DNA from: a virus
Strand: one strand, 5' to 3'
Length of the DNA stretch: 64,000 bases
IMG/VR virus record: IMGVR_UViG_3300025508_000006
Span: 32,001-96,000 of that record
The position numbers were made by a program, and so were the translations under genes. The notes beneath the pieces were generated by a model that saw only the letters and a program-made list of their open reading frames with translations, searched no databases and was not told the DNA's origin. This document shows, in pieces, positions 21,543-39,635 of this stretch (positions are counted from its first letter, which is position 1; each line of letters starts with the position of its first letter).

Positions 21543-24500
21543 ATGGCAAATATATTCACATCTAATACGTTATCTGGAAGTTATGCAGACGATTATAACG
21601 CTAATGACAACTATCATCAGATATTGTTTAACAGCGGTCGCGCACTTCAGTCACGAGAACTTACACAGATGCAGACTCTTATCTATGAAGAGATGGGTCG
21701 CATGGGTTCGAACATATTTAAAGACGGTGCAGTAGTAAATGGTGGTGGTGTTAGCATGAACAATGCTTATCACTTCGTCAAGATTGCATCTACTAATCAG
21801 GGTGGCGAGTTCGGTGCTATACCAAACGGCACTATCATAAAGAATCCTAACACAAATGTTTCTGCTCAGGTTATTCAAGCGATACCTGCTAACGGTACTC
21901 AGTTATTTGATACACTGTTCGTTGAGTACATTAATAGTGGTAATGCACTAGCGACAAATTCACCAACTACATTTGGTGATAACGAAACCCTAGTTGAGCA
22001 ATTTGCTACAAGCAGTGCTTATGAGTTAGTGACAGAGACTCCTGATGCGACAGGTTACGGTGCTAAGTTTACTGTTGCAGAAGGCGACTTCTTCATTCTA
22101 GGTCGTTTTGTTCATACCGAAGAACAGTCGATTATTCTTTCATCTTATACTGGTGACAACATTAATGCTGAGGTAGGTTTCAAAGTCATTCAGCAAGTAG
22201 TAACTGTTACAGATACCGATTCTCTCTATGACAATGCTTCGGGTATTGTTAATACTGCTTCACCTGGTGCTGATCGACTTCGCATCAGATTAGAACTTAC
22301 TACTAGAGATTTGATTGGAGTAAACGATACGTTCGTATTCCTTGCAGAGGTTGAAAACTCAGCAATCAGTGAACAACTACAATCTATTGACGCATATAGT
22401 AAAATCGAAGAACTTCTTGCGCTACGTACTAAGGAAGAGTCTGGTGATTATGTTGTCGAACCTTTCATTGTTAATGTCAGTGAAAACGACAATGGCATAG
22501 ATGCTAATCTCGAACTTAATGTAAGTGAAGGTACTGCATATGTAAATGGTTATCGTGCAGAGAATCAATCACCAATTACTTTAAGTCTTCCACGACCAAC
22601 AGAAACCGAGACAGTAGAGAACGATGTTATCGGTGTGAACTACGGCAACTACTTTGTATGTACTGCAAACAGAGGTCTTCCTAATCTTGATCTTGCAAGA
22701 GTTGACTTGTGGAGCGCAACAGGTTATGGCGGTGGTGGTACTGATTACGGTACTTGTCGTATTCGTGCAGTAGAACCTTTCGGAACTAAGTTTAAAGTTT
22801 ATGTATTTGACATGAGAGTGTTTACTACAGAAGACCTCGGTAATGTAAAAAGTATTGGTTCCTCAACTACTGATTACTTCGATATCGATTTACAGGGTGG
22901 TAAAGCAGTACTACACGAAACTACTAATAATAATACAGCATTATTTGCAGCGGCATATCCTCGTATAGAGTCTCTTGCAGATATTGTGTTATCAAAACAA
23001 GTACGTCAACAAAAGACTGCATCCACTAATGCTGTCACTCTTGATCAGTTACCCGTGGGTTCTTCATATGTAGATTCATCTTTATGGATTGTAAGTTTAA
23101 GCAGTGCAGTGATCGAAGCACCTAGCACCTACACTGTTGCTATCACTAACGGTGGTAGAGATGCTACTATAACAAGTCTTGCTAGTGCTTCTGGTACGTA
23201 TGAAATTCTTGCTTATGTTCAGAAGACTGCAACAGTTCGTCCAAAGACTCTCACAACCGCAACTGCAACTATCAACAGTACTACTGACTCTGCTGGTCGT
23301 ACATTGTTTGATATTGGTGTTCCTGACATCTACTCTATTGATTCAGTGCGTCAAAGTAACAGTGTAGGTTTTGATCTCTCGTCCGCAGTAGTACTTGACG
23401 ATGGACAACGTGACAACTATTATGCTGACGGTAGTCTTTTACTCAAAGAAGGTCATGCAGATCCTTCTGCGATCTACATTTCATATAAGCACTTTGCACG
23501 AGGCAGTGGTGATTTCTACGCTCCTTCTTCTTACAACGTTCCTTATAAAGATATTCCTTTACATACATCAGTCACTGGTGATACAATTGATCTACGTGAT
23601 GTTGTTGACTTCAGAGGAGATAGAAATGGTTTCGAAGGAACTTTCTCTAATGTCAATGCTCTACCTAGAGTAGGTACTAATATTACTGCTGATATCGACT
23701 ATTATCTACCTCGTGCAGATAAAGTGATTATTACACCAGAAGGTGAAGTACAAGTATTAATGGGTCAGCAAGCGCGTGAACCTCAGTTCAAAGAAACGCC
23801 TATGCACTCTATGGAACTATACAAGATTATTCTCAACGGTAATACTATCAGCGAAAATGATTTGACTGTACTTCCAACAGCACAGCAACGCGGTTACACG
23901 ATGAAAGATATTGGTGATATTGATCGCAAATTAGATGCTCTTGAAGAATCCACATCATTAAGCATTGCAGAACTTGAAGCGAGATTGGACAATGTTCTTG
24001 ATAGTGCTGGTGTTATTCGTATCATTAGTGGTATGCAAGTAGACGAGCATGGCGATCAAGGCAATAGTGAAGTCGAATCACCCGATTATAAGGCAGCAAT
24101 TGATCCTGAGAATCGTTTAGTACGTCCTTCTTTTGAAGAAGGTAATATGCGTCTAATCTTCGACTCGGCGGCATCTTCGGGTGTTGTTAAGAAAGGTGAT
24201 AATGTTTATCTTGCTCACACCGAAGCATCTTGGGTAAACCAAAGTATTGCATCACGGTCAGTTAAGATCAATCCGTTCGGTCTTATTGATAATGTAGGAA
24301 CGATGAAACTATCACCATCAACTGATGAGTGGAAAGAATCTATTCAAAATGCCGCCAAGTCTCTTGCGGGTTCGGGTCGTCTATTCGGTAATCAGGCATT
24401 CTTATGGAATAACTGGATGTGGAACTGGCAGGGACGTACTGCGAAAGAGAATGCTGAAATTTCTAAGTTGGCAGGAGTAGTTCGTACTGGTTCTGGCAGA

Positions 24501-26921
24501 GCGAAAGCATTTGCTTTAAGAACATTACATAATAAATATGGACTATCACAATCCGCCACTATCAAACGTATTATCTCTGGTAATACTCTACGTAACGTAG
24601 TAGGTGACAGAACTATTGATGTTGCATTTGTACCATGGATTAGATCACGTAAGATTTACTTCAAGGCACAAGGACTAACGCCCAACACTAAGTTTACACC
24701 ATTCTTTGATGGTACTGATGTTTCAGTTTGGTGTCGCGAAGAATCATCGTTTGTTCAGTGGTCTGATAGAACAGATGAGATTGGTAACAAGTTTACTCAC
24801 TCAGCGATAGTCGGTCATCCAGACGGCACAAGCGATCTGATTGCTGATGCTAACGGCGAAGTTATTGGATCATTCTTCATTCCTAATATCAGTCCTAAGT
24901 TAGAAGTTGCTCACACTAAGTATCGCGGACGATACAACAAATATTATCTACGATTCAGATCAGGCGCACGAGAGTTCAAACTTCTCGATATTAATGTCAA
25001 TGATTGGGCAAGTGCAAACAGTAAAGCATTCACTCACTATACTGTTAAAGGTCTGTTGCCTTGGACTTGGTACAATCCTTTAACTTATACACGTGGTCAT
25101 CGTTATCTTTATCCTTACAACTATCGACATAAGTTGTATTCAGCAAAAGAAATGAAAAAGGTTCTTGATAGTATACCAGCGAGTCAGGTGAATATTATTG
25201 ATCCAAGATTATCTGGACTATATGGTCCTGACGGTGTATCTCTGAATGCGGCAGCACTACAGACGCTTGCTAATAATCAAGATATGTCTAAGGTTCTGTC
25301 TGACTACATTAACGTGAATCAGGCACAGTTCGCTTCTATTCTTGGTGTAAGAGCAATTCCTACTCCTATGAATCCATTGGCACAGTCCTTTAAAGTCAAC
25401 AACGAGTTTGGCGTAACACTAACTAAAATCGAGTTGTTCTTTAAGTCGAAACCAACTAATGTATCTCTGCCTGTTTCTGTACATGTTCGTCCTGTAGAGA
25501 ATGGTAAACCTTCGATGAGTAGCATAGTACCAGACTCGCATGTTTATGTCAATAGTGCAAATGTTATTGTTTCTAGCACAGGTGCTCAGTTAGCAACTAT
25601 TCAAGGTAATGGAACGTCATTCGTATTCGACGAACCTATTTACTTGGCACCAGGACAAGACTATGCTATTGTAGTTACTTCACAGTCAACTGAATATGAA
25701 TTGTTCAGTGCTAGAACTAGAGAGTCGGTTATCAACTCAACTGGTAGATACAACACTACACAAACTCCGGGTTATCTCTTCTTACCACAAAATGGTAAGA
25801 ACTGGGAGAAATCACAGAACGAAGACTTAATGTTTAAAGTTACTCGTGCAGTGTTCGGTTCAGGCGGCGGTGCTAACGGTAGTGTGATATTGAAAAATGC
25901 TTCTGTTCCTGCTAAACTTCTTGAAGAGAATCCGATTCAAACTACGTTCAGCGACGAAAAGATTTATGTACGTCACATCAATCACGGTTTACGTCCAGGT
26001 GATGGTTGTAATGTTGATAGTGCTACAGAAACGGGTGGTTTCTCTGCCGCACAGTTGAGCGGTTCGCATCAAGTTATTGATGTTGATATGTACGGTTACA
26101 GATTTGAAATTGATCCTTCTAATCCTGTTGTTGCTACATCAACAGCAACTGGTGGTGGTGAGAGAGTATTGTCACAAGGAAATATAAACTTCTCAGTAGT
26201 TAATCCAATTATCGAGTCGATTATTCCTAACTCTACTTCGATTGATGTATCAGGTAAGTTTACTTCTGGGCGATCAATCTCTGGTTCAGAAACTCGATTT
26301 ACACAGGACGCTAATTTTAACAGAATTACTCCTAAGACTAATACTGATCTTGCCTCAACGTTCACTCTGTATAACGACTTCGAAGTTGATTCATCTACCA
26401 TGAGCGGAATCAATTCTTCTACTTTGTTTAAAGTTGACATGAAGAGTGCTAATGATTATGTTTCACCAATCATTGACTTACAAAGATCATCTTTGGTCAC
26501 AGTAAACAATCTAGTTGATGATCCATCGGTTACTCCTCACATCTATAGTGTTGGAGCAACGGCAGCATCAGGAGCGTCTTCAAGTACTGCTCACATTATG
26601 AAACCAGTTGTTCTTGATCAACCTGCTATCGGTATTGAGATTACAGCGGAGTTAGCGATACACTATACAAGTAATGTTAAAGTATACTATAGAGTAGGCG
26701 CCGCAGATGAGAATCTTAATGATCTTGTATGGATACTTCAACCAGAATTTAGCACTATCGTTAAAGATGCACAAATGCGTAAAGTTAAGTTTCTTGCTGG
26801 TGGTCAGGGCGGTACACTGAAACCATTTAATCAAGCACAGACTAAGTTGATTATTGAAGGAACTGATCCTGCAAATACAGCAAAAATAGGTGATATAGTT
26901 GTTAAGTGGTTAGCAAGTTAA
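21543..26921 (+). CDS. Large virion structural protein (DUF4815/VrlC-like)
   Basis: YHQILF..GRALQSRELTQMQ, PGADRLRI, RTKEESGDY, YYLPR.D, YTMKDIG.I..R, PWIRSR and PLAQSF. Confidence 0.8.
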   Translation: MANIFTSNTLSGSYADDYNANDNYHQILFNSGRALQSRELTQMQTLIYEEMGRMGSNIFKDGAVVNGGGVSMNNAYHFVKIASTNQGGEFGAIPNGTIIKNPNTNVSAQVIQAIPANGTQLFDTLFVEYINSGNALATNSPTTFGDNETLVEQFATSSAYELVTETPDATGYGAKFTVAEGDFFILGRFVHTEEQSIILSSYTGDNINAEVGFKVIQQVVTVTDTDSLYDNASGIVNTASPGADRLRIRLELTTRDLIGVNDTFVFLAEVENSAISEQLQSIDAYSKIEELLALRTKEESGDYVVEPFIVNVSENDNGIDANLELNVSEGTAYVNGYRAENQSPITLSLPRPTETETVENDVIGVNYGNYFVCTANRGLPNLDLARVDLWSATGYGGGGTDYGTCRIRAVEPFGTKFKVYVFDMRVFTTEDLGNVKSIGSSTTDYFDIDLQGGKAVLHETTNNNTALFAAAYPRIESLADIVLSKQVRQQKTASTNAVTLDQLPVGSSYVDSSLWIVSLSSAVIEAPSTYTVAITNGGRDATITSLASASGTYEILAYVQKTATVRPKTLTTATATINSTTDSAGRTLFDIGVPDIYSIDSVRQSNSVGFDLSSAVVLDDGQRDNYYADGSLLLKEGHADPSAIYISYKHFARGSGDFYAPSSYNVPYKDIPLHTSVTGDTIDLRDVVDFRGDRNGFEGTFSNVNALPRVGTNITADIDYYLPRADKVIITPEGEVQVLMGQQAREPQFKETPMHSMELYKIILNGNTISENDLTVLPTAQQRGYTMKDIGDIDRKLDALEESTSLSIAELEARLDNVLDSAGVIRIISGMQVDEHGDQGNSEVESPDYKAAIDPENRLVRPSFEEGNMRLIFDSAASSGVVKKGDNVYLAHTEASWVNQSIASRSVKINPFGLIDNVGTMKLSPSTDEWKESIQNAAKSLAGSGRLFGNQAFLWNNWMWNWQGRTAKENAEISKLAGVVRTGSGRAKAFALRTLHNKYGLSQSATIKRIISGNTLRNVVGDRTIDVAFVPWIRSRKIYFKAQGLTPNTKFTPFFDGTDVSVWCREESSFVQWSDRTDEIGNKFTHSAIVGHPDGTSDLIADANGEVIGSFFIPNISPKLEVAHTKYRGRYNKYYLRFRSGAREFKLLDINVNDWASANSKAFTHYTVKGLLPWTWYNPLTYTRGHRYLYPYNYRHKLYSAKEMKKVLDSIPASQVNIIDPRLSGLYGPDGVSLNAAALQTLANNQDMSKVLSDYINVNQAQFASILGVRAIPTPMNPLAQSFKVNNEFGVTLTKIELFFKSKPTNVSLPVSVHVRPVENGKPSMSSIVPDSHVYVNSANVIVSSTGAQLATIQGNGTSFVFDEPIYLAPGQDYAIVVTSQSTEYELFSARTRESVINSTGRYNTTQTPGYLFLPQNGKNWEKSQNEDLMFKVTRAVFGSGGGANGSVILKNASVPAKLLEENPIQTTFSDEKIYVRHINHGLRPGDGCNVDSATETGGFSAAQLSGSHQVIDVDMYGYRFEIDPSNPVVATSTATGGGERVLSQGNINFSVVNPIIESIIPNSTSIDVSGKFTSGRSISGSETRFTQDANFNRITPKTNTDLASTFTLYNDFEVDSSTMSGINSSTLFKVDMKSANDYVSPIIDLQRSSLVTVNNLVDDPSVTPHIYSVGATAASGASSSTAHIMKPVVLDQPAIGIEITAELAIHYTSNVKVYYRVGAADENLNDLVWILQPEFSTIVKDAQMRKVKFLAGGQGGTLKPFNQAQTKLIIEGTDPANTAKIGDIVVKWLAS

Positions 26922-26922
26922 A

Positions 26923-27153
26923 ATGTCGCGCTACGTTAAAGTAGATGGTGTTCCTGGGTTAGTTCGAGATATGGAGTCTAATGCGTTAATAAACGTAAAT
27001 TCTCATGAGATCGAACTTGCCCAGAAACAAAAGAGAATAAGAGAGAAGTCTAAAATAAATCGTCAAAACTTAGAGGATACAGTAGAAGTACTTCAGAAAG
27101 ATATGTGTGAAATAAAGGAAGCATTAGCAATATTGCTTTCCAGAAGCATATAA
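26923..27153 (+). CDS. Small conserved hypothetical protein (coiled-coil C-terminus)
   Basis: KVDG..GLVRD..SNALIN...EIK..L..LL, the kind of ORF that usually follows the DUF4815 gene. Confidence 0.7.
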   Translation: MSRYVKVDGVPGLVRDMESNALINVNSHEIELAQKQKRIREKSKINRQNLEDTVEVLQKDMCEIKEALAILLSRSI

Positions 27154-27156
27154 ATA
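27149..27156 (+). promoter_or_regulatory. T4-type late promoter
   Basis: TATAAATA upstream of the giant repeat gene. Confidence 0.8.
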
Positions 27157-27188
27157 AATGAAACAACTGACTCTAAGATGATAGATTT

Positions 27189-30100
27189 ATGTCCTTACCG
27201 CTAAAACATCTCGGCACTGGTGCTCTTCAAGAACTCGCTACGCTTGATATTGATTATCTTGCGTATCAAGCGGGTATTCATCTTGGTAAAATGAGTAACG
27301 AAGATGTCTCTGCTATCTCCACAAATGGTAGCGGAGCAACAGTTGTCGGATCTTTTACAGATACTCTGTATGAGACAACAGTCGGTTCTACTCCAGGAAC
27401 AACTTACACCGTAAACTTTACTGTTGAACATCGTTCTAATCCTGGAACTGGTACACATACTGCAATATTCACAGCACAGAATGAAATGCCATCTCCTTTA
27501 TATGTCGGAGATACAGTTTATGTTATCGTGAACGGTGATGCTATAACTGGATTCGAAGAGATCGGACACGAACTTGCTGTATCTGGTGATGCACTATTTG
27601 TTACCGAAGGTGTTAACACAACACCTACAGCAAATTCAGTTGATGGAACAAGAGTCGAGTGGGAAGACTTTCAGAATGTCGCAGGTCTCTCGGGATCATA
27701 TCAGTCTGCCTTTGAAATTAAAGTGACTCAAGTAGGTCTCTTAAACTTTACTTTAACTGCTAACTCTACTGACGTAGATAACACAATCAAACAAACTGCT
27801 AATACTAGTATTATATTTCCTACTGTTGAAGTTGAAGAGACTTTACCACCGGAGTCTATAGGCGTACAGACTGATCTTTATCAAAAGACTACTGCTTCAC
27901 AACCTATTAATACGACCAGTGCTTTAAAGAAAAATCCAATATACTGGAACAGAGCATTAACGCCTAATGGTGTTAAGGAGATGAATGACGCAGAACTTGA
28001 CGCATTTTGCGAAGAGTTAGTCATACGTATTATGCGGGACGAGTTGCCTGGTACTTATCGTCTATCCTCTAACAGTCCTGGTGCTAATTGGGTTCAGTTT
28101 ATTCCTAGCGTATTCGAAGATACTCGTGCTGACGGAACTACAGTACCGTATTCAATATGGATAAGACAAGCGGGTATTAAACCTACTGTAATCAGACCAG
28201 TTTATGTTGCACGTAATGTAGAGAATGGTTGGGCAGGACTAAAAGAACATACAGATGCCGAAGTAGAATTTACTTTCGGCGAACGCGTAAAGAAAGCAAT
28301 TGAAACTACAGGAATTGGTAAGTATCAGTTGCGCTCTTCAACACAAGGTGCACCCACTGATGCAGGTACATGGGTTGCACGTGGTAGTGCAATAGATACA
28401 AGACTTGAATACTTCTATGATACTGGTTATCAGGCACTAGAAACCTACACGTCACAATATACAGAAGATTATCTTGGTGAGTATGAAGCAACTTATGCGG
28501 GTAACTATGAACCCACTTACACAGGCGAGTTCACAGGCGATTACCTAGGCACTTACGATGGTGACTTCATTGGCAACTACACTCCAACATATGACGGTGA
28601 TTATCTAGGCGATTACTCGCAGAACTATCTTGGTGACTACAACACAGAATATACTCAGAACTATCTAGGTGACTATGTAAATCAATACACACCTACATAT
28701 GATGGTGCCGATTACATTAGTGATTATGAAAATACATATGATGCTGATGCTGTCATTGAGCAATATGCCAGCGACTACGAATCTGTCGATTACGTTGGCA
28801 ACTATATTTCTGATTATAACACAGACTATATTTCCGATTATACCAATACATATCTTTCAGACTATTCTGGTACAGAGTATGTCGGCAATTATATTTCTGA
28901 TTATCTAGGTGGATTCCAGACCGATTATCTCGGAAACTATATTTCAAATTATATTGATGATGTTTATGTAGGCAACTACATCACTGATTACACCAGCGAT
29001 TATATTAGTAACTATCTTGGATCTTATGATGGTGATTATCTAGGTGATTATGGCGCAAGTTATGAAGGTGCTTATGATAACTCATACGAAGGAGACTTCC
29101 AAGCAACTTATGCTGGTGACTTCACTGCTGATTATCTCGGAACATATCTGACAGATTACGATTCGCAATACGAAGGGCAGTTCTCTGAAAACTACGATGG
29201 TGATTACATCAGCGACTATCTCGGAACATATTCTAGTGGATATGAGTCTGAATATGAGACAGGTTATATAACCCAATACGAAGGCGCGTATGATGAATCA
29301 GAATATGTGGGCAACTTTGTTGCTAGTTATGATAACTCATACGAAGGAGACTTCCAAGCAACTTACGCTGGTGATTACATCAGCGACTATCTCGGAACAT
29401 ACCTAAATGATTATGATTCACAATATGAAGGTCAATTCGCAGATAACTACGCCGGCGATTACATCAGCGACTACCTTGGAACATACGCTAGTGGATATGA
29501 GTCTGATTACTCCACTGACTACCTTACACAATACGAAGGTGCGTATGATGAATCAGTATATGTGGGCAACTTTGTTGCTAGTTATGATAACTCATACGAG
29601 GGTGACTTTCAAGCAACTTATGCTGGTGACTTCACTGCTGATTATCTTGGAACATACCTAAATGATTATGATTCACAATATGAGGGTCAGTTCGCAGATA
29701 ACTACGATGGTGATTACATCAGCGACTATCTCGGAACGTACACTAGCGGATATGTGTCTGATTACTCTACTGACTATCTTACACAATACGAAGGTGCGTA
29801 TGATGAAGCGAATTATCTAGGAAACTTTGTTGCTGATTATGTGTCTGACTTCGAAGGTGCTTACACCAATTTGTATGCTGGTGATTATATCAGCGACTAT
29901 CTTGGAACATATGCTGGTGAATATGAAAGTGCTTATGCTACAAACTTCGATGGTATTTACGTTGGTGGATTCGATACAGATTATACAGCAACTTTTGATG
30001 GAGAATACGAGAACACCTATATCGGCAACTATGTTTCAGACTATCTTAATGAGTTTGAAACCACATACACAGGCGACTATGGTGGTGAATACACCTCTAC

Positions 30101-33100
30101 TTACGCCGGTAATTATAGTGGCAACTATATTTCAGATTATACGAATGAGTTTGAAACCACATACATCGGTGACTATGGCGGTGAATATGTTTCTACTTAC
30201 GCTGGTAATTATAGTGGCAACTATGTTTCAGACTATCTTAATGAGTTTGAAACCACATACGCAGGTGATTATGGTGGACAATATACTTCTACTTACGCTG
30301 GTAATTATAGTGGCAACTATGTTTCTGACTATCTTAATGAGTTTGAAACACCATACGTAGGAAATTATAGCGGTGAATATGTTTCTACTTACGCTGGTAA
30401 CTACCAAACACAATACGCCAATGACTATACTAATGAGTTTGAAACAACTTATACTGGTGATTATCTAGGTAACTATGAAACTGATTATGCAGGCAATTAT
30501 ATTACTCAATACTCTGCCGAATATCAAGTACCTTACACTGGTGTTTACACAGGCGATTACATCTCTGACTATATTGGTGATTACATCTCACCTTATGATG
30601 GCGCTCTGTACACTTCAGATTATATCTCTACTTACGAAAGTGCATATGGTGGTCAATTTGAATCATCATACACTGGAGTATTTGACGGAACAACATACTC
30701 AGGAAACTATGCTAGTCAATACGTAGGCAACTACATTGGCCTATACAACAAGAACTACGCGACAGCATATGAAGGCACTGATTACATATCCACATACGAA
30801 GAAACTTACACTGGAGATTATTCTGGACAATATTCTTCTGCTTATGTAAGCGTTTATGATGCTCAAGCATATGCTACAGCATACGAAGAGAATTATATTG
30901 GAGATTATTCTGGTACATTCGGTGCTACGTTCTTAGGAACTTATGATAGTTCAAACTATACTTCAACATACGTAGAGACTTATGTTGGTGATTATCTTGG
31001 TAATTATGCTTCTGCTTATGTAAGCGTTTATGATGCTCAAGCATATACTGCATCGTTTGACACAACCTATTCTGGTGAGTACTCGGGCGTATTTAACGCA
31101 TCTTTTGCAGGCGAATATGATAGTACACAATATACTTCATCATTTGAAACTACATATGTTGGTGATTATATTGGTCAATTTAGTCAGAACTTTGCTGCCA
31201 GTTTCGACGGAATACCTTATGTAGGATCATTCGAGACAAACTATGTCGGCAACTATCTCGGACTGTTCACAGGTCAGTTCTCAGCATCATTTGCGGGTTC
31301 TGATTACATCTCAATATTTACTGCTCAGTATACTTCGCAATATACTGGACAGTTTAGTGCTACTTTCAATGCTTCTTATGATGCTACAACATATGTAGGA
31401 GATTATGTATCTGGATACGCAACAGCATATAGCGGTGCGTTTGGTGCAACCTTTATTGGCGAATATGATAGACAAGCATATGATACACAGTTTTCAGCAA
31501 CTTATACCGGAAACTATATTGGTCTATTCTCTGCTACATTCTTAGGAACGTATGATAGAACAGGTTATGCTTCTAATTTTACTGCTGACTATACAGGTAA
31601 TTATACTGGTGCCTTCGGTGCTACATTCTTAGGAACGTATGATCGTCTGCAATACACAAATGAATTTGAAAGTGCATATCTCGGCAACTATATCGGACTG
31701 TTCACACAAACGTATATTGGTTCTTATCAAAGAATCAACTATCTTACACAGTACGAAGGCATATACACAGGTGATTATAGTGGTGCCTTCAGTGCTACAT
31801 TCTTAGGAACGTATGATCGTGCTGCCTATGCACGAGAGTATGACAGAGTTTATACAGGTAATTATACTGGCCAGTTCACAGCAAACTATGCCGCGACATA
31901 TGATCGAATTGACTACACTTCTCAATACACGGGCGGTTATACTGGCGGTCCCGCTGAAACTTTCGGTGCTACATTCTTAGGAACGTATGATCGTGCTGGA
32001 TACGTATCACAGTATACGGGTCAATATGTCGGTCAAATTAGCGAAGTGTTTGGTGCTGATTACACAGGTAACTATGATAGTAGTAACTACACTTCGTCTT
32101 ATACTGGACAATATGTAGGACAGATTGCTGAAAACGAGAATACCACCAATCAAGAATCTTTTGATAGTGGTCAATATGCCGCTCAGTACACAGGACAATA
32201 TGTAGGACAGGTTGCTAAAAACGAGAATACCACTAATGCTGAGTCGTATGATAGTTCAAACTACAACACACAATTTACTGGTAACTATACTGGCGGAGTT
32301 ACTGAGAATATAACCCAGTCACAGAACGAATCGTTCGCAAGAGATTCTTACGTCTCACAATATACTGGTCAGTATACTGGTGTAGTAGCACAAAACACTA
32401 ACGAAACCTTTACACAAAACTTTAACGAAGCGGGATCCTATCAGGTTGGTTATGTAGGACAATATATTGGTCAAGTTTCACAGACTCAGCAAACTGGTGA
32501 GAGTGAAAACTTCCAAGTAAATTATACTGGTGATTATACTGGTCAATATATTGGAGTGATTTCACAGACCCAACAGACTGCTACAAATGAAGACTTCAAC
32601 GTACAATATACTGGTGATTATACTGGTCAATATACTGGTGCTGTACAGGAAGCAATATCTTCTACTTACACCGGTGGTTATACTGGTGTTTACAGTGGTA
32701 GTTATACTGGTGGTTATACTGGTGGGGTTTCTCAGACTCAACAGACTGGCATTGCTGAAGCAATAACACAGTCACAGAATCAGTCATTCGCCCGCAATTA
32801 TGCTGGTAACATCTATGGGACTACTTCTCAGGTGTCTCTGGGATATACTTCTGACTCATATAATCTGGTGAGTAGTGTAGGTTATAACCCAATCAATCAA
32901 GGTGGTGCTTTTTACTCTGCCGGATCGATGTCTCCTACCTATTGGGGAGGAGGAGTCAATTCGACAGTCACTAAAGTATACAAAAAGAATAACTTTATAT
33001 ACGACGGCACCGGGCAAGATGAGATGCACCTGTTTTTCGGATCAACCTTCAGTGCATCACAGCAGGGTTCTTTCGGTTCTTTGTTTATATGGTATAGCGG

Positions 33101-36100
33101 GACTAGTACCACTGCGACTGCGGCAGACAGAGCGGGTCATCGATTCTATTCATCACAAGCAACATTGAGTCTCGGCACTAATCAAACGCATTACGCATGG
33201 TTACTGGGCAGTGTAGGTACCCAGTACCCTTTATGGACTTCCAATCTTAATGCTGAGGGTACACCGTGGAATGTTGCTTGGATTCCAAATACAACATCGT
33301 CTACTAATTATAATGCCGGTACGTACACAGGACAATACTCTGGTCAATATGTTGGTGTTTATGTTGGTGGATATACTGGAGTATATACTAGAGTACAACA
33401 AACTACTGTAATCGATAATGTCGCAGAAACAATTCAACAGTCATACACTGGAACATACACTGGTGGATATGAACGATCACAGAATCAAACTTTCAGTGCG
33501 GTCTATGCAGGAACTTATACTGGTCAATATACTGGTGGTTATGTTGGAGCATACGAGAGAGCGCAGAATCAAACTTTCACTGCGGTTTATCAAGGAACTT
33601 ATACTGGTATTTACACGGGTGGTTATGTTGGTCTATACGAGAGAGCGCAGAATCAAGAATTTGCTGTTGTATACACCGGTTCATACTTAGGCGACTACAC
33701 TGGACAATACTCTGGTGGTTATGAACGTGCGCAGGACGAAACATTCGGTGCAACATATATCGGTGACTATATCGGTCAATACTCTGGACAATACTCTGGT
33801 GTATATACACGAGAACAGGCAACAAATTATGCCTCTGATTATCTAGGAACATTTGTCGGTAACTATACTGGACAATACCTTGGATTATATGAACGTGCCC
33901 AGAATGAATCGTTCACCGTAAACTATCAAGGAACTTATACTGGTGGTTATACTGGACAATATGCGGGTCTATATGAACGTGCGCAGGACCAAGCATTCGC
34001 GGCAAACTATCTCGCAACTTTTGAAGGCGCATTCGGAGCGCAGTACACAGGACTATATGAACGTGCGCAGGACCAAACATTTGCTGCCACATACACAGGA
34101 ACATTTGAAGGTAACTATGTATCACAATACACTGGTTCTTATGAACGAGTGCAGGATCAGCAGTTCTCTGCTAACTATCTAGGAACGTTCAACGCGAGTT
34201 ATGCTTCTCAGTACGAAGGCGCGTTCGCTTCCGACTATGCCACACAATATGCTTCACAGTACGTAGGAACATTTGAAGGTGACTATCTATCACAATACAC
34301 CGGTGGATTCACTCAGAACTTTACAGGTCAGTTCGGTGTTAACTATGAAGGAACGTTTGACGGTAATTATGCGACACAGTACGAAGGTAATTTCTCACAA
34401 TCTTTTACTGGTACTTATGCTACACAATATACAGGAACATTTGAAGGTAACTATGTATCAGAATACTCGGGTGCATTTGCCGCTCTTTATACAGGAGACT
34501 TTGCTGCCTCGTATCTAGCAACGTTTGATGGAAATTATGTTAGTCAATATGAAGGTAACTTTGCTGCCAACTTCGGGGCGCAGTTCAGTGAACAATATAT
34601 TGGAACTTTCTCTGGTGACTATGTGTCAGAATATATCGGCGCATTCAATGTTACATATCAAGGCAATTACACTTCTGATTACATTGATACATACACATCC
34701 GATTATGTTTCACAGTATGAGTCGCAGTTCTCCGCTGTATATGCTGGCAACTTCGAAGGTGCATATACAGATGATTATCTTGGCGAGTATGCTAGTCAAT
34801 ACGAAGGCAACTTTAGTGCAACATTCACTGGAACTTATAACGTAGATTACATCGACACATATACCTCTCAATACCTGTCTACTTACGAAGGTGCTTTTCA
34901 AGCACAGTTCATAGGAACATACGACTCACAGTATCTAGGAACTTTCATCGGTGATTATGGTTCAGCATATGAAAGCAACTTTACTGCTAACTTTGATGGA
35001 ACATATGATTCAGCATATATCGACACTTATGCGGGTGATTATATCTCGGCATACACAGGTGCTTTCCAAGCAAACTTTGAAGGAACCTACGACACACAGT
35101 ATCTAGGAACATTTGAAGGCAACTATGTGTCACAGTACACTGGTGACTTTGCCGCAACATTCACTGGAACCTATGACGTTGATTATATTGATACATATGC
35201 TGGTGATTATATCTCGGCATACATAGGTACTTTCCAAGCAAACTTTGTTGGAACATATGATGGTAACTTCACAGGAACTTATGCTACAGGTTACAACACT
35301 GACTATGAAGGAGCGTTCTTAGTTGACTATCTTGGTGATTACATATCTGATTATGTTCCTACATATGAAGGTCAATATGCTACTCAATATGAAGGTGATT
35401 ATGCATCGCAGTACTTAGGTAATTATAACTCTGCTTACACATCCACTTATGACGGTAACTTCACTCAGACATATGCGGGTAACTTTACTGATGTATATGT
35501 TTCTGACACATATATCGGCGATTACATAAATCAGTACACGCAAGATTATGTATCTGGATATGCGACACAGTACGAAGGAGCATTCCAACAGAACTATATC
35601 GGAACTTATGACACTCAGTACGAATCACAATACACTCAAGATTATGTTTCTGACTACGATTCTGGTTATGTCGGTGACGATTTAGAGCAATATGATGGCA
35701 CTTACGGAACTGCATATGCGGGCGACTTCATACAGGACTTTATCACTGACTATGATTCTCAATACGAAGGAGACTTCCAACAGAACTATGTAGGCACTTA
35801 CGGAACTGCATATTCTGGAGACTTCGTACAGGATTTTATCACTGACTATGATTCAGGTTACGAAGGAGACTTCCAACAGAACTATGCTGGCACTTACGGA
35901 ACTGCATATGCGGGTGACTTCATACAGGACTTTATCACGGACTACGATTCTAGTTACGAAGGAGATTTCCAACAGAACTATGTAGGCACTTATCAGACTG
36001 CCTATGCTGGAGACTTCACTGCGGACTATCTTACTCAGTACACAGCATCTTACGATGGCACTGTCTATGCTGGAACATACGACTCAAATTATATCAATCA

Positions 36101-37718
36101 GTATGAGTCAGACTTTACTGAACAATATACTGGTGAGTACGACGACATTGATTATGCAGGTAATTATATCAGTGACTTCGAAACTGATTACACGGGTTTC
36201 TATACCTCAGATTACATAGGCGATTATCAGAGTAATTATCTAGCAACATACGCAGGATTCTACGAGACTGCATTCACTGCAACTTATGCAAGTGAATATA
36301 CTTCTAACTACGATGATCAAGATTATGCTGGCAACTATGTTAGTCTTTACACTGGGGATTTCATTGGACAATATACTTCAACTTATGAGACTGCTTATGA
36401 TGACATCAACTACGTAGGCAACTATATCAGTGACTATGTTGGTGACTATAGCGGTGATTATGTAACAGATTACGTAGGGGATTATCAGAGTGATTACCTA
36501 GCAACATACGCAGGATTCTATGAGACTGGATACCTTACAACATATGGAAGTGAATATACTTCTAACTATGACGACATTGATTATGCTGGTAATTATATTA
36601 GTCTTTACATTGGCGACTTCATTGGACAATATACTTCAACTTATGAGACTGCTTATGACGACATTGATTATGGTGGTAATTATATTAGTGACTATGTTGG
36701 TGACTATAGTGGTGATTATGTAACAGACTACATAGGCGATTATGAGAGTAATTATCTAGCAACGTATGCAGGATTCTATGAGACAGAATACCTTACAACA
36801 TATGCAAGTGAATACACGTCCAACTATGATGATCAAGATTATGCTGGCAACTATGTTAGTCTTTACATTGGTGACTTCATTGGACAATATACTTCAACTT
36901 ATGAAACCGCATATGATGACATCAACTATGTGGGTAATTATATTAGCGACTATGTTGGTGACTATAGCGGTGATTATGTAACAGATTACACTGGAGTTTA
37001 CGAAGAGCAGAACTACCTCGGCAATTACGTATCAACTTATGATGATATTGAATATGAAGGTAACTATGATTCAATCTACACTACAGATTATCTTGTTGAC
37101 TTCGAGGGTAATTACTTAGGTGATTACAACACAATCTACGAAGGAACTTATGAGTCTTTATATTCAGGTGACTTCTTACAAGGATTTGATGGAGTCTATG
37201 AGGGTGGTTTCGATTCTACTTACGCAGGTGATTACGGTACTACTTACGCAGGAGACTATGAGTCAAACTACACACTAACTTATGTTGGTGATTATCTTGG
37301 TGACTATACTCCATCGTACTCAACTCTATATGCTGGCAACTACACAGGCACTTATGACGCTGATGCAGTAGATGAGTCTTACACTGTTGATTATATCGAA
37401 CAAACTTATGATACGGACTACACAGTAGACTATCAAGAGGATGTCTATCTGGGCAACTATATAGATACATTTGACGGCGCAGATGTTGAAGAGACTTACG
37501 TTTCCTCTTATGACGATGTTGATTATTCTACTGACTATTCTTCTGACTACGATAATGTCGATGCAATAGAGAACTATCAAGATGCTGATTACACAGGAAC
37601 ATATACTCAAGACTATGCGATAGATTATCAAACATCTATATTATACGGTGTTGGTGGCAAGTTACTTGCTAATCCAGTACAAATTGAAACATACACATTA
37701 TATGTAAGGGTAGCATAA
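27189..37718 (+). CDS. Giant Tyr/Gly/Asp tetrad-repeat virion fibre protein (3509 aa)
   Basis: Uninterrupted ORF under a late promoter. About 420-aa N-terminal domain, two arms of about 1450 aa with (Y/F)xxx repeats flanking a non-repetitive domain of about 165 aa, and a short C-terminal strand (ETYTLYVRVA). Confidence 0.8.
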   Translation: MSLPLKHLGTGALQELATLDIDYLAYQAGIHLGKMSNEDVSAISTNGSGATVVGSFTDTLYETTVGSTPGTTYTVNFTVEHRSNPGTGTHTAIFTAQNEMPSPLYVGDTVYVIVNGDAITGFEEIGHELAVSGDALFVTEGVNTTPTANSVDGTRVEWEDFQNVAGLSGSYQSAFEIKVTQVGLLNFTLTANSTDVDNTIKQTANTSIIFPTVEVEETLPPESIGVQTDLYQKTTASQPINTTSALKKNPIYWNRALTPNGVKEMNDAELDAFCEELVIRIMRDELPGTYRLSSNSPGANWVQFIPSVFEDTRADGTTVPYSIWIRQAGIKPTVIRPVYVARNVENGWAGLKEHTDAEVEFTFGERVKKAIETTGIGKYQLRSSTQGAPTDAGTWVARGSAIDTRLEYFYDTGYQALETYTSQYTEDYLGEYEATYAGNYEPTYTGEFTGDYLGTYDGDFIGNYTPTYDGDYLGDYSQNYLGDYNTEYTQNYLGDYVNQYTPTYDGADYISDYENTYDADAVIEQYASDYESVDYVGNYISDYNTDYISDYTNTYLSDYSGTEYVGNYISDYLGGFQTDYLGNYISNYIDDVYVGNYITDYTSDYISNYLGSYDGDYLGDYGASYEGAYDNSYEGDFQATYAGDFTADYLGTYLTDYDSQYEGQFSENYDGDYISDYLGTYSSGYESEYETGYITQYEGAYDESEYVGNFVASYDNSYEGDFQATYAGDYISDYLGTYLNDYDSQYEGQFADNYAGDYISDYLGTYASGYESDYSTDYLTQYEGAYDESVYVGNFVASYDNSYEGDFQATYAGDFTADYLGTYLNDYDSQYEGQFADNYDGDYISDYLGTYTSGYVSDYSTDYLTQYEGAYDEANYLGNFVADYVSDFEGAYTNLYAGDYISDYLGTYAGEYESAYATNFDGIYVGGFDTDYTATFDGEYENTYIGNYVSDYLNEFETTYTGDYGGEYTSTYAGNYSGNYISDYTNEFETTYIGDYGGEYVSTYAGNYSGNYVSDYLNEFETTYAGDYGGQYTSTYAGNYSGNYVSDYLNEFETPYVGNYSGEYVSTYAGNYQTQYANDYTNEFETTYTGDYLGNYETDYAGNYITQYSAEYQVPYTGVYTGDYISDYIGDYISPYDGALYTSDYISTYESAYGGQFESSYTGVFDGTTYSGNYASQYVGNYIGLYNKNYATAYEGTDYISTYEETYTGDYSGQYSSAYVSVYDAQAYATAYEENYIGDYSGTFGATFLGTYDSSNYTSTYVETYVGDYLGNYASAYVSVYDAQAYTASFDTTYSGEYSGVFNASFAGEYDSTQYTSSFETTYVGDYIGQFSQNFAASFDGIPYVGSFETNYVGNYLGLFTGQFSASFAGSDYISIFTAQYTSQYTGQFSATFNASYDATTYVGDYVSGYATAYSGAFGATFIGEYDRQAYDTQFSATYTGNYIGLFSATFLGTYDRTGYASNFTADYTGNYTGAFGATFLGTYDRLQYTNEFESAYLGNYIGLFTQTYIGSYQRINYLTQYEGIYTGDYSGAFSATFLGTYDRAAYAREYDRVYTGNYTGQFTANYAATYDRIDYTSQYTGGYTGGPAETFGATFLGTYDRAGYVSQYTGQYVGQISEVFGADYTGNYDSSNYTSSYTGQYVGQIAENENTTNQESFDSGQYAAQYTGQYVGQVAKNENTTNAESYDSSNYNTQFTGNYTGGVTENITQSQNESFARDSYVSQYTGQYTGVVAQNTNETFTQNFNEAGSYQVGYVGQYIGQVSQTQQTGESENFQVNYTGDYTGQYIGVISQTQQTATNEDFNVQYTGDYTGQYTGAVQEAISSTYTGGYTGVYSGSYTGGYTGGVSQTQQTGIAEAITQSQNQSFARNYAGNIYGTTSQVSLGYTSDSYNLVSSVGYNPINQGGAFYSAGSMSPTYWGGGVNSTVTKVYKKNNFIYDGTGQDEMHLFFGSTFSASQQGSFGSLFIWYSGTSTTATAADRAGHRFYSSQATLSLGTNQTHYAWLLGSVGTQYPLWTSNLNAEGTPWNVAWIPNTTSSTNYNAGTYTGQYSGQYVGVYVGGYTGVYTRVQQTTVIDNVAETIQQSYTGTYTGGYERSQNQTFSAVYAGTYTGQYTGGYVGAYERAQNQTFTAVYQGTYTGIYTGGYVGLYERAQNQEFAVVYTGSYLGDYTGQYSGGYERAQDETFGATYIGDYIGQYSGQYSGVYTREQATNYASDYLGTFVGNYTGQYLGLYERAQNESFTVNYQGTYTGGYTGQYAGLYERAQDQAFAANYLATFEGAFGAQYTGLYERAQDQTFAATYTGTFEGNYVSQYTGSYERVQDQQFSANYLGTFNASYASQYEGAFASDYATQYASQYVGTFEGDYLSQYTGGFTQNFTGQFGVNYEGTFDGNYATQYEGNFSQSFTGTYATQYTGTFEGNYVSEYSGAFAALYTGDFAASYLATFDGNYVSQYEGNFAANFGAQFSEQYIGTFSGDYVSEYIGAFNVTYQGNYTSDYIDTYTSDYVSQYESQFSAVYAGNFEGAYTDDYLGEYASQYEGNFSATFTGTYNVDYIDTYTSQYLSTYEGAFQAQFIGTYDSQYLGTFIGDYGSAYESNFTANFDGTYDSAYIDTYAGDYISAYTGAFQANFEGTYDTQYLGTFEGNYVSQYTGDFAATFTGTYDVDYIDTYAGDYISAYIGTFQANFVGTYDGNFTGTYATGYNTDYEGAFLVDYLGDYISDYVPTYEGQYATQYEGDYASQYLGNYNSAYTSTYDGNFTQTYAGNFTDVYVSDTYIGDYINQYTQDYVSGYATQYEGAFQQNYIGTYDTQYESQYTQDYVSDYDSGYVGDDLEQYDGTYGTAYAGDFIQDFITDYDSQYEGDFQQNYVGTYGTAYSGDFVQDFITDYDSGYEGDFQQNYAGTYGTAYAGDFIQDFITDYDSSYEGDFQQNYVGTYQTAYAGDFTADYLTQYTASYDGTVYAGTYDSNYINQYESDFTEQYTGEYDDIDYAGNYISDFETDYTGFYTSDYIGDYQSNYLATYAGFYETAFTATYASEYTSNYDDQDYAGNYVSLYTGDFIGQYTSTYETAYDDINYVGNYISDYVGDYSGDYVTDYVGDYQSDYLATYAGFYETGYLTTYGSEYTSNYDDIDYAGNYISLYIGDFIGQYTSTYETAYDDIDYGGNYISDYVGDYSGDYVTDYIGDYESNYLATYAGFYETEYLTTYASEYTSNYDDQDYAGNYVSLYIGDFIGQYTSTYETAYDDINYVGNYISDYVGDYSGDYVTDYTGVYEEQNYLGNYVSTYDDIEYEGNYDSIYTTDYLVDFEGNYLGDYNTIYEGTYESLYSGDFLQGFDGVYEGGFDSTYAGDYGTTYAGDYESNYTLTYVGDYLGDYTPSYSTLYAGNYTGTYDADAVDESYTVDYIEQTYDTDYTVDYQEDVYLGNYIDTFDGADVEETYVSSYDDVDYSTDYSSDYDNVDAIENYQDADYTGTYTQDYAIDYQTSILYGVGGKLLANPVQIETYTLYVRVA
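28446..32810 (+). repeat. N-arm coding repeats (12-nt tetrads; higher-order 255-nt x3 and 96-nt x4 units)
   Basis: GATAACTCATACGA at 29076, 29331 and 29586 (255-nt spacing); 96-nt units from 30024. Confidence 0.9.
33308..37640 (+). repeat. C-arm coding repeats (12-nt tetrads; higher-order 96-nt x3-4 and 258-nt x3 units)
   Basis: GGCACTTA at 35697, 35793, 35889 and 35985; GCAAC.TA.GCAGGATTC at 36243, 36501 and 36759. Confidence 0.9.
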
Positions 37719-38191
37719 TGACAGTGGAATTTTTAGACAATGGATTTTGGGAAAACGAAGAAAAGACAATACTTAAATGTATTCGCTTAACTCCTATACC
37801 AGAAGGAGGTAGAAAGAAAGACGTTCTTGAACTACGTAAGATATTGCCGGACGGTTCAGAATGTCCTCAGTTCAAGCAGTGTATCGCACAGCATGGTATA
37901 GCAAAGATTGATGCTAATACGCAAGTTCGAAAGGATACTAAAGAGAAAGAAGATCGAGAGAAACGTGCTATACACGAGCAACGTAAAAAATCTCACGAAC
38001 TTGAACAACTCTTTAATGCCAAACTACAAGCATTCGAAATTGATGAGATCAAGAACTCAACAAATCGCGAGTTGCGTTCTAAACTACGTAGGGCGAAGAA
38101 TGTTATTGAAATGAATGCATTGGCAGCATTAGTGATTGGAAGTGAACTTGGTTATTTTAAAAAGGTAGATGAAGATGAGCGAACCGACTAA
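37718..38191 (+). CDS. Hypothetical protein, possible fibre chaperone/accessory
   Basis: Start overlaps the giant gene stop; charged and helical (LF.AKL.AFEI.EIKNS.NR..RSKLR.AK). Confidence 0.6.
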   Translation: MTVEFLDNGFWENEEKTILKCIRLTPIPEGGRKKDVLELRKILPDGSECPQFKQCIAQHGIAKIDANTQVRKDTKEKEDREKRAIHEQRKKSHELEQLFNAKLQAFEIDEIKNSTNRELRSKLRRAKNVIEMNALAALVIGSELGYFKKVDEDERTD

Positions 38192-38933
38192 AGGTTATGT
38201 TATTGTAGCATCACGAAAGAAGTTTTTTTATGTCTCTGCCATTAATTTGATGGAGTCAATCAAAGATTATTATCCTGAAGCACAGATTACATTTGTAGTA
38301 GAAGAAAAGTTTCTTGACGGACAAGAAAGAATTGCAGACAATGTTATATTCTGCGACGATCATGCTAGAGCAAAACTGATTGGTATGGCAAAGTCTCCGT
38401 ATGATATAACGTTTTATGTCGATGCTGATATAGAATGTGAACATGAAGACATTGCAACTATCTTTGATAAACTTGATGGACACGATTTGATGTTTACTGG
38501 TTTACCTGCTGATAGGCATTATTGCTATGCCGAGGTGTTCTTCGAGGGTGCAAGAAAACCAGACGGCACTAAAGCAGGATTTGAATTGTGTGGTGGTGTT
38601 TGTCTATATGATATGCGTAAACCCTTAGTTCGTTCATTCATGCAAGATTGGTATGACTTGACTGTTGCTCAGTACGGTAAAGTTTGGTGGCCAACATTAG
38701 AAGATGGAGTGACCGAAGATTTAGAAAATTATCCTGCAACTCTGAAGAGATGGGATCAATTCTCACTGTGGTGGTTAGTCAATAAAGAACCTAAGTACAA
38801 AGATTTGAAAGTCGGTATACTAGAAGACGATGCTCGGTGGAACTTTTATTCCAAATATAAATATGATCACAACAAGGATCCTGTCGTATTGAGACACTAT
38901 TCTTCTTCTGGAGCAAAGCAACTGGATTTTTAA
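38175..38933 (+). CDS. GT-A fold glycosyltransferase-like protein
   Basis: GYVIVAS....Y..A.NL..SIKDYYP, SPYD.T.YVDAD (DxD), GGV.LY, WDQFSLW, RWN and terminal HYS. Confidence 0.75.
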   Translation: MSEPTKGYVIVASRKKFFYVSAINLMESIKDYYPEAQITFVVEEKFLDGQERIADNVIFCDDHARAKLIGMAKSPYDITFYVDADIECEHEDIATIFDKLDGHDLMFTGLPADRHYCYAEVFFEGARKPDGTKAGFELCGGVCLYDMRKPLVRSFMQDWYDLTVAQYGKVWWPTLEDGVTEDLENYPATLKRWDQFSLWWLVNKEPKYKDLKVGILEDDARWNFYSKYKYDHNKDPVVLRHYSSSGAKQLDF

Positions 38934-38935
38934 AT

Positions 38936-39610
38936 ATGATGAAAAATATACCACTGAATGATTATGCAATTAATCTTCTGAACGAAGCACTTTGGTTTAC
39001 TAAGGAAGAGAACTACAGTGCTGTTATTCCTTCTAAGATAAATGATTTAGATAAAGCAGATTGGTACACTGGTCAAGAATATTTCGAGCAGATTAAGGGC
39101 GAGGGCAGACAACATGATGGGTTCCCCGCTTTCGTTACTAGTTATTCATTCAATCAAGATTATAGGTTTGATCCTCGTAATCCACATATTGATCGAAAGA
39201 TAGCAGAAGTTGCAGATCATCATGGCAAGTTGATGACTAATATACAGACCGCTTTCAATCTTAAAAAGAATGCTCTGTTCTCTGTATATCCGCCCGGTGG
39301 TTATATCTCATGGCACAACAATGCGAATGCTTCGGCATATAACTTTATATTCACTTACAGTGAAACTGGTGATGGTTGGTGGAAGCATTGGGATCCAGTC
39401 AATCAGAAAATGATTCACATTCCTGATGTTAAAGGTTGGCAATGTAAAGCAGGACACTTCGGTGCATATGAAGATGGACCCGAATCCCTAGTATATCACA
39501 CTGCACGTAATGGTGAAAGCGGAATACGTATGACAATTGCCTTTGTATTAGATCGATCAGAGATGTCTTTAGGTATACAAGATTGGGTAATTGAAGATAT
39601 ACACGTCTAA
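38936..39610 (+). CDS. DSBH/2OG-Fe(II) oxygenase-like protein
   Basis: YPPGGYISWHNN, distal YHTA and R.TIAF strand, typical of the jelly-roll oxygenase layout. Confidence 0.6.
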   Translation: MMKNIPLNDYAINLLNEALWFTKEENYSAVIPSKINDLDKADWYTGQEYFEQIKGEGRQHDGFPAFVTSYSFNQDYRFDPRNPHIDRKIAEVADHHGKLMTNIQTAFNLKKNALFSVYPPGGYISWHNNANASAYNFIFTYSETGDGWWKHWDPVNQKMIHIPDVKGWQCKAGHFGAYEDGPESLVYHTARNGESGIRMTIAFVLDRSEMSLGIQDWVIEDIHV

Positions 39611-39615
39611 ACTCT

Positions 39616-39635
39616 TATAAATAAACCTATAAATA
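39616..39635 (+). promoter_or_regulatory. Tandem T4-type late promoters
   Basis: TATAAATA at 39616-39623 and 39628-39635. Confidence 0.75.

Follow-up and report, generated by a model that had tools for sequence, protein, structure and literature searches.

Does a bacteriophage encode, next to a giant fibre, enzymes of its own with which that fibre is modified? The question is raised by four consecutive genes at positions 27189-39610 of a stretch of 64,000 nucleotides (the window; positions 32,001 to 96,000 of IMG/VR record IMGVR_UViG_3300025508_000006), which code for a 3509-residue repeat protein presumed to be a fibre, a protein of 157 residues (P0001), a glycosyltransferase-like protein (P0002), and a protein with the double-stranded β-helix (DSBH) fold of 2-oxoglutarate (2OG) oxygenases (P0003). 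The window belongs to a 116-kb IMG/VR viral contig, which is estimated to be 67% complete. A first-pass annotation, made from the sequence, had proposed that the phage hydroxylates and/or glycosylates its fibre. Of this proposal, the enzyme folds, the conserved late unit, and the linkage of the genes stand, whereas the part of the fibre as acceptor is something that we infer. The four genes are a conserved, presumably late-expressed module shared by uncultured T4-like phages of one aquatic clade (Kyanoviridae-type), and the reading that we favour, a serious possibility if not quite a probable one, is that the three smaller genes form a dedicated cassette for maturation or modification of the fibre.

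Four linked genes in a late unit

The unit and the promoter motifs in and around it are arranged as follows:

27149-27156, plus strand: T4-type late promoter motif TATAAATA, 40 nt 5' of the ATG of the giant open reading frame (ORF)
27189-37718, plus strand: giant fibre-like ORF of 3509 residues, from the ORF scan
37718-38191, plus strand: P0001, protein of 157 residues, from the ORF scan
38169-38933, plus strand: P0002, 254 residues, predicted GT8-like retaining GT-A glycosyltransferase, with D85-A-D87, D196-Q197, H243, and R67/K69 conserved
38856-38863, plus strand: additional TATAAATA in the 3'-terminal part of the P0002 gene and 73 nt 5' of the P0003 gene
38936-39610, plus strand: P0003, 224 residues, DSBH protein (2OG-oxygenase fold) with H127-x-N129 ... 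H188 ... R198 and the motif W-H-x-N-x-N
39616-39635, plus strand: two TATAAATA motifs (at 39616 and 39628), which open the next late unit with a tail-fibre-assembly-like gene at 39663

The tight coupling of the four ORFs noted in the first-pass annotation is real. The stop codon of the giant ORF and the start codon of P0001 overlap by one base (TAATG), P0001 and P0002 overlap by 23 nt (or by 17 nt, should translation begin at 38175 as in the homologues), and P0002 and P0003 are separated by 2 nt. The late promoters placed at 39616 are also there, in the form of the two TATAAATA motifs, and the gene at 39663 that follows them matches the tail-fibre-assembly families phrog_1084/phrog_3304. TATAAATA occurs 12 times in the window, always on the plus strand, where 5.3 occurrences are expected, and none of 100 shuffles reached 12. 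The statement that a single late promoter serves the unit is not quite right, as it takes in the motif at 27149 and overlooks the one at 38856, which may be an internal late promoter, or else a chance match or a coding coincidence (K-Y-K-Y). Among 65 distinct related cassettes, 10 have a motif in the position of that at 38856, none has one before P0001 or the glycosyltransferase gene, and in 63 the DSBH gene is followed by one at a distance of up to 200 nt, so that the unit boundary at this point is conserved. Terminator-like sites in the unit are no commoner than in shuffled sequences. Contigs from RNA libraries span all junctions (e.g., 37574-38981 in X16), with carry-over of phage DNA being possible; metatranscriptome contigs, some of them very long, are spread evenly over the whole region, and RNA and carried-over phage DNA are inseparable in them.

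Co-occurrence of the four families in gene neighbourhoods, suggested earlier as a check, was surveyed from both sides and is borne out both ways (the trio in 80/80 loci on the enzyme side, usually behind a gene of the fibre family, and cassette genes near 67/80 fibre ends). For the enzyme side, 80 IMG/VR loci were retrieved with a transferase profile, and the order P0001-glycosyltransferase-DSBH is found in all 80; P0001 was detected in 79 of them, directly upstream of the transferase, and the DSBH protein in 79 as well, the sole locus without a DSBH match ending at that point. In 66 of the 80 loci an ORF upstream has a Tyr content above 10%, and the 14 that fall below this cut-off comprise 11 with a lower-Tyr fibre ending in ...TYTLYVRxA and three with a different giant protein. 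For the fibre side, the alignment of the N-terminal domain (A4) is too divergent for scanning the collection, a scan with the single N-domain sequence recovering four close relatives only, and the reciprocal test was made with the back-translated C-terminal motif instead. All of the 80 loci obtained in this way have the motif at the true end of an ORF of the fibre family. Cassette genes lie near the fibre end within the fetched locus in 63 of them, and in four of five exceptions that were checked the glycosyltransferase-DSBH pair is situated further along the same record, which brings the total to 67; in the remaining 13 loci the downstream DNA is too short to judge.

The distance between fibre and trio is not fixed, inserts of 1.7 to >5 kb being found in some relatives. 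Two loci (L104 and L164) contain two fibre paralogues in the order fibreA-P1-GT-fibreB-DSBH (P1, P0001; GT, glycosyltransferase), which indicates that the linkage outlasts rearrangement. When 50,697 phage records of GenBank were searched, each of the four families (fibre N-domain, P0001, glycosyltransferase, and DSBH protein) matched one and the same record, that of the metagenome-derived phage C48C1, the sole GenBank relative for these genes, where they occur in the same order. This identical distribution of the four families agrees with a fibre-dedicated cassette.

The glycosyltransferase-like and oxygenase-like proteins

The AlphaFold2 model of P0002, built on an alignment of metagenomic homologues, has a mean predicted local distance difference test (pLDDT) score of 93.6, and its Foldseek search gives more than 500 matches at E<=0.001, all of them GT-A enzymes. 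The Rossmann-like domain with a DxD motif after the central strand makes P0002 a member of the GT-A group, and GT8 members are structurally the closest to it (E ~1e-8 to GT6/GT8 enzymes). The nearest structures are those of protein-modifying enzymes, i.e., glycogenin, Skp1 Gat1, GlyE, and UGGT. In 94 sequences D85-A-D87 is conserved at 100%, and D85/D87, D196-Q197, H243, and R67/K69 at 99-100%, down to 36% identity; H243...K250 is present and conserved as well. The DxD GT-A assignment of the first-pass annotation is thus upheld at the level of the fold, with invariant putative catalytic residues. Sequence searches gave no match to PF01501 (Glyco_transf_8) even at E<=10, and none in PHROG or among PDB sequences, and 19 of 32 members of the P0002 family have weak Glycos_transf_2 matches over residues 65-106, the DxD region. 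Cys141 presumably lies where GT8 enzymes have Asn, the assignment of these motifs to GT8 positions being tentative. We conclude that P0002 is probably an active, divergent GT8-like retaining transferase. Two of its metagenomic homologues are fused to further domains, P0098 to an N-terminal Methyltransf_23 domain and P0243 to an N-terminal domain of 290 residues without a Pfam match. Both fusions agree with a glycan-building role, and that of P0098 presumably resembles glycan-building enzymes such as PBCV-1 A064R. Fusions of the glycosyltransferase to a DSBH protein or to P0001 were not encountered among the fused transferase forms searched.

For P0003, the AlphaFold2 model, also built on an alignment of metagenomic homologues, has a pLDDT of 93.8 and contains the eight strands of the DSBH core. 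A second structure search, made without Foldseek, returned members of the 2OG-oxygenase superfamily as its 50 top chains, and the nearest structures are again protein-modifying enzymes: PHD2, the prolyl 4-hydroxylase (P4H) of EF-Tu, Skp1 PhyA, and the collagen P4H of PBCV-1. The earlier description of P0003 as DSBH oxygenase-like is therefore right as regards the fold, the canonical triad being absent. H127, N129, H188, R198, and Y118 are retained in 99-100% of the sequences, even at 33-36% identity, and we take H127, H188, R198, and Y118 to lie on the strands that hold the Fe/2OG ligands in PHD2, judging by the order of secondary structure elements. R198 (99% conserved), a candidate for the basic residue that binds the C5 carboxylate of 2OG, opens the last core strand 10 residues past H188, and T200 follows two residues further on. 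A P0003 profile compared with 1.84 billion representatives recovered 497 clusters at 50% identity. Of the wider DSBH family, 147 representatives were inspected, 116 of which contain [WF]HxNxN, and a single one has an Asp or Glu at the carboxylate position (FHNEDN). No match was obtained for the family in Pfam, also when 10 distant members were scanned, nor in PHROG, among PDB sequences, or in the ESM Atlas, and no cellular homologues were found, the only four 'genome' matches being T4-like phage contigs in bins of metagenome-assembled genomes (MAGs). Because the HxN motif prevails, no Pfam domain is matched, and the 'cellular' matches are phage contigs in MAG bins, the P0003 family is a distinct, virus-restricted DSBH family characterized by W-H-x-N-x-N, and the families of the unit as a whole are confined to viruses.

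The third member of the trio, P0001, has W11, R71, K102, R124, and E131 conserved in 93 sequences. With 31 Lys plus Arg and 30 Asp plus Glu residues it is not net basic, and it has no match in Pfam, PHROG, the PDB sequence search, or the ESM Atlas.

The giant repeat protein as a possible substrate

The giant protein consists of a conserved, non-repetitive N-terminal domain of ~400 residues, ~3100 residues of repeats, and the conserved C-terminal motif ETYTLYVRVA, and its family was defined by the N-domain alignment A4 together with this C-terminal motif. Aromatic residues (Phe, Trp, and Tyr) account for 21.0% of the protein, less than the quarter that had been estimated, Tyr alone for 16.0%, and Lys plus Arg for 1.6%. 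Within the repeats, successive aromatic residues stand exactly four positions apart in 596 of ~700 cases, the unit being [Y/F]-[T/A/V/S]-G-[N/D/T]. Positions conserved in the repeats throughout the family are the Gly, the Asn/Asp/Thr before the aromatic residue, and the Thr/Ala/Val/Ser after it. Two repeat arms flank a centre containing Trp, Pro, and Lys at about residues 1900-2035, and the composition of the arms, compared in 150-residue windows, agrees more closely when the windows are paired in mirror order (mean r 0.90) than when they are paired in parallel (0.76), which fits a fold-back hairpin. On either side of the centre, at 1428-1602 and at 2068-2320, Arg is found at intervals of 28-29 residues. 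Within the family (related loci L003-L173) the length varies about ten-fold, from roughly 400 to 3500 residues, the net charge of the repeats ranges from -0.24 to +0.11 per residue, the repeats being Asp-rich here and Arg-rich ('RTR') elsewhere, and the use of Tyr or Phe at the periodic position varies widely. Neither the giant protein nor its parts match Pfam or PHROG, and its ESM Atlas score is 0.75 only. Its gene has a virion structural gene (phrog_473) on one side and tail-fibre/assembly genes on the other, and from this position, the architecture, and the variability in length the product is presumed to be a fibre.

If the three smaller proteins act on this fibre, P0001 might be a small adaptor or chaperone-like protein. 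The GT8-type retaining glycosyltransferase would take a nucleotide sugar as donor and attach the sugar to the fibre, or extend a glycan that grows on it, the likeliest acceptors being Thr/Ser (or Asn/Asp) of the repeats and not the aromatic position, and the prolyl-hydroxylase-like DSBH protein with its two-His-plus-Asn site would hydroxylate a side chain of the fibre, or bind the fibre. Should the repeats be modified, O-glycosylation of Thr/Ser and hydroxylation of Asn/Asp would be the candidate reactions. In its most specific form, that the phage covalently decorates a fibre built from a hitherto undescribed four-residue aromatic ladder with its own glycogenin-like GT8 transferase and a hydroxylase of a new W-H-x-N-x-N class through Thr/Ser/Asn/Asp chemistry, the proposal is doubtful. 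Two other kinds of chemistry are disfavoured. Phe-type relatives keep the full cassette (L097 with 3.7% Tyr and 9.1% Phe, L170 with 4.7% Tyr and 10.2% Phe), and therefore Tyr-specific chemistry, be it glycogenin-like glycosylation of repeat Tyr or the conversion of Tyr to dihydroxyphenylalanine (DOPA) considered in the first-pass annotation, is unlikely as a conserved role. The analogy drawn there with collagen and Skp1 is also unlikely to extend to hydroxylation of Pro or Lys in the repeats, since these have 16 Pro and 6 Lys in ~3100 residues.

Several observations weigh against modification of the fibre by the cassette. The fibre is taken as acceptor because of the linkage, which could also reflect membership in a shared late module, and the identity of the fibre itself is derived from position, architecture, and length variability of a protein that matches neither Pfam nor PHROG. 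With the exchange of Tyr and Phe at the aromatic position, a glycogenin-type Tyr target is not conserved, and with so few Pro and Lys in the repeats the obvious hydroxylase targets are missing. P0003 does not have the HxD/E...H triad, Asn129 taking the carboxylate position in 91 of 91 sequences, and this family-wide replacement of the Asp/Glu ligand makes oxygenase activity uncertain. AspH, however, is active with two His ligands only (PMC6817910), which leaves room for a hydroxylase activity of P0003.

The DSBH family is also present in one to three copies per genome, some of them far from the fibre, so that the occurrence of the enzymes away from a fibre, named at the outset as an observation that would speak against fibre modification, is partly the case for the DSBH protein. 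One conserved copy lies between a gp3-like tail gene and uvsY, and a third elsewhere. The former was located at:

L002:18267-18920: DSBH paralogue at the gp3-like/uvsY site
L087:4389-5003, minus strand: the same
L089:5005-5646: the same
L213:6001-6582: the same
L214:6001-6564: the same

The phage of the window does not have this paralogue, its gp3-like gene and uvsY being adjacent (contig 98360-99338), and the 116-kb contig, i.e., about 67% of the genome, has the fibre-linked DSBH copy only. A co-evolution of charge between fibre and cassette, for which Spearman coefficients of -0.72 (P0001), -0.68 (glycosyltransferase), and -0.47 (DSBH) were obtained, was considered and rejected as a clade effect. 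Independent contrasts on the glycosyltransferase tree abolish the signal (r = +0.17, -0.10, and -0.30), and a control gene, the next one, which codes for a 119-residue protein, also anti-correlates with fibre charge (-0.37); charge complementarity was given up for these two reasons.

Three other explanations of the locus have to be compared with a fibre-dedicated cassette. The enzymes might be real and have another target, such as another virion protein, a polysaccharide or receptor of the host envelope, or a small molecule, and share with the fibre a mobile block of late genes. The fibre is parted from the trio by inserts of up to >5 kb in some relatives, and DSBH paralogues exist elsewhere in the genome, both of which would suit this explanation. 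However, the co-occurrence in both directions and the identical phyletic pattern of the four families, the persistence of the trio beside genes of the fibre family after rearrangement, and the location in a late structural unit with no promoter before P0001 or the glycosyltransferase gene argue for a tie to the fibre. A membrane segment or secretion signal was not noticed in the sequences, for which no formal search was made, and this too speaks against another target. On balance we consider another target to be on the unlikely side.

A narrower tie, in which only P0001 and the glycosyltransferase belong to the fibre and the DSBH protein is a member of a multi-copy family with a general role that happens to occupy the last slot, seems clearly unlikely to us, even if several observations are in its favour. 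For the many genes of the 2OG-oxygenase superfamily in cultured cyanomyoviruses a part in 2OG turnover or DNA repair has been proposed, and these viruses have several small 2OG-Fe(II) oxygenase genes whose role is unknown (PMC3037559). The copy number and the conserved site between the gp3-like gene and uvsY, the size of the family with its 497 clusters, the motif TATAAATA that the DSBH gene has of its own in 10 of 65 cassettes, and the separation of the DSBH gene from the P1-GT pair in L104 and L164 all point the same way. Nevertheless, 79 of 80 loci have a DSBH copy behind the transferase, the DSBH gene of the rearranged loci stands directly behind the second fibre gene, and the fibre-linked copy is the only one in the contig studied here. 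The glycosyltransferase-like and DSBH-like proteins might finally be non-catalytic, having been taken over for fibre assembly as chaperones or for the fibre itself as minor structural components. Phage fibres often need adjacent dedicated chaperones, the next gene matches a tail-fibre-assembly PHROG, and the HxN site of the DSBH protein is non-canonical. In contrast, the residues expected in the nucleotide-sugar/metal pocket of the glycosyltransferase (DxD, DQ, and His) and in the 2OG pocket of the DSBH protein (His, His, Arg, and Tyr) are 99-100% conserved to 33-36% identity, which indicates selection for catalysis or ligand binding and makes non-catalytic roles of the two proteins highly improbable.

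The source phage, known systems, and biological meaning

By gene order and similarity, the contig belongs with T4-like phages classed as Kyanoviridae, and near-identical DNA is present in many freshwater metagenomes and six metatranscriptome libraries. Neither psbA nor the Pfam domain 2OG-FeII_Oxy_3 was found in the 116-kb contig. Directly upstream of the unit, a gene at 21543-26921 codes for a 1792-residue protein that matches phrog_358 (E 7e-291, function unknown), and one at 26923-27153 for a 76-residue protein that matches phrog_473, a virion structural protein; C48C1 has an insertion of four additional genes, a tail fibre gene and a chaperone gene among them, between the phrog_358/phrog_473 homologues and the giant gene. 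Four contigs filed under MAGs of Flavobacteriaceae, Sphingobacteriales, and Porticoccaceae (L211-L214) consist of T4-like phage DNA and share the gene order; they are mis-binned phage, or at most a weak hint at hosts. Outside the window, at contig positions 115075-116030 (L091:1675-2631), the contig end truncates an ORF that shares 25% identity with a gene of C48C1 annotated as UDP-glucose dehydrogenase. Since no Pfam domain is matched by this ORF, a nucleotide-sugar pathway is not claimed.

Among characterized enzymes, the GT8 group with glycogenin, Skp1 Gat1, GlyE of Streptococcus pneumoniae, and LgtC has the folds closest to P0002, which for its part has no sequence match to Pfam Glyco_transf_8 or to a PDB chain. 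Glycogenin glucosylates itself on Tyr, of which the P0002 system gives no indication. The prolyl hydroxylases closest to P0003 (PHD2, the EF-Tu P4H of Pseudomonas putida, PhyA acting on Skp1 in Dictyostelium, and vCPH of PBCV-1) have HxD, whereas the P0003 family has an invariant Asn in W-H-x-N-x-N, is without a Pfam match, and has a putative substrate with repeats almost devoid of Pro. AspH offers with its two His ligands a parallel to P0003 that may serve as a lead. It ranks below the prolyl hydroxylases, however, and it needs a tetratricopeptide repeat (TPR) domain and a disulfide-bonded epidermal growth factor (EGF)-like substrate, neither of which is present in this phage system.

Viral enzymes that modify a structural protein of the same virus are known from mimivirus, where the lysyl hydroxylase/glucosyltransferase L230 and R699 act on the virus's own collagen (PMC9546862, PMC5802723). 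The likeness is that a virus encodes a 2OG hydroxylase and a glycosyltransferase for its own repetitive, fibre-forming protein, an arrangement that is proposed here. Mimivirus is a eukaryotic giant virus with Gly-X-Y collagen, Lys as target, and fused enzyme domains, whereas the present case concerns a bacteriophage with a four-residue repeat nearly without Lys and Pro, separate genes, and other enzyme families. In mycobacteriophages (Che8, Rita, and relatives), glycosyltransferases glycosylate virion proteins of the same phage (Freeman et al. 2023, PMC10527164, cited in PMC11256854). Capsid and tail-tube proteins of siphoviruses are glycosylated in that case, by transferases encoded far from the structural genes, and a hydroxylase is not part of the system; here the modification is putative. 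Cultured T4-like cyanophages contain multi-copy genes of the 2OG-Fe(II) oxygenase superfamily with unknown function (PMC3037559). P0003 and these proteins are both small (~190-240 residues) DSBH proteins with several copies per T4-like genome, and the cyanophage proteins are weak structural neighbours of P0003 in BFVD (template modelling score, TM, 0.3-0.47). In contrast, there is no detectable sequence similarity between them (a tblastn search of GenBank phages returned C48C1 only), and the HxN site sets P0003 apart. No description of the cassette or of its families was found in the literature searched.

The repeat protein is genuinely unusual, the DSBH proteins form a new HxN class, and the analysis defines three families outside Pfam and PHROG models, i.e., the aromatic-repeat fibre, P0001, and the W-H-x-N-x-N DSBH family with its ~500 clusters. 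Even without modification of the fibre, the tight linkage of the four genes can serve to recognize a clade of uncultured phages that is abundant. If the proposal is true, this would be the first hydroxylase-plus-glycosyltransferase pathway for modification of a structural protein in a phage, comparable to the modification of collagen in mimivirus and animals but with unrelated chemistry at the substrate, and it would offer a first way into the function of the many orphan oxygenase-like genes that aquatic T4-like phages contain. Host recognition and the protection of virions in fresh water would be concerned as well if the fibre, with its tunable length, were glycosylated, and the coupling of hydroxylation to glycosylation of a viral structural protein would reach from giant viruses and eukaryotes to bacteriophages.

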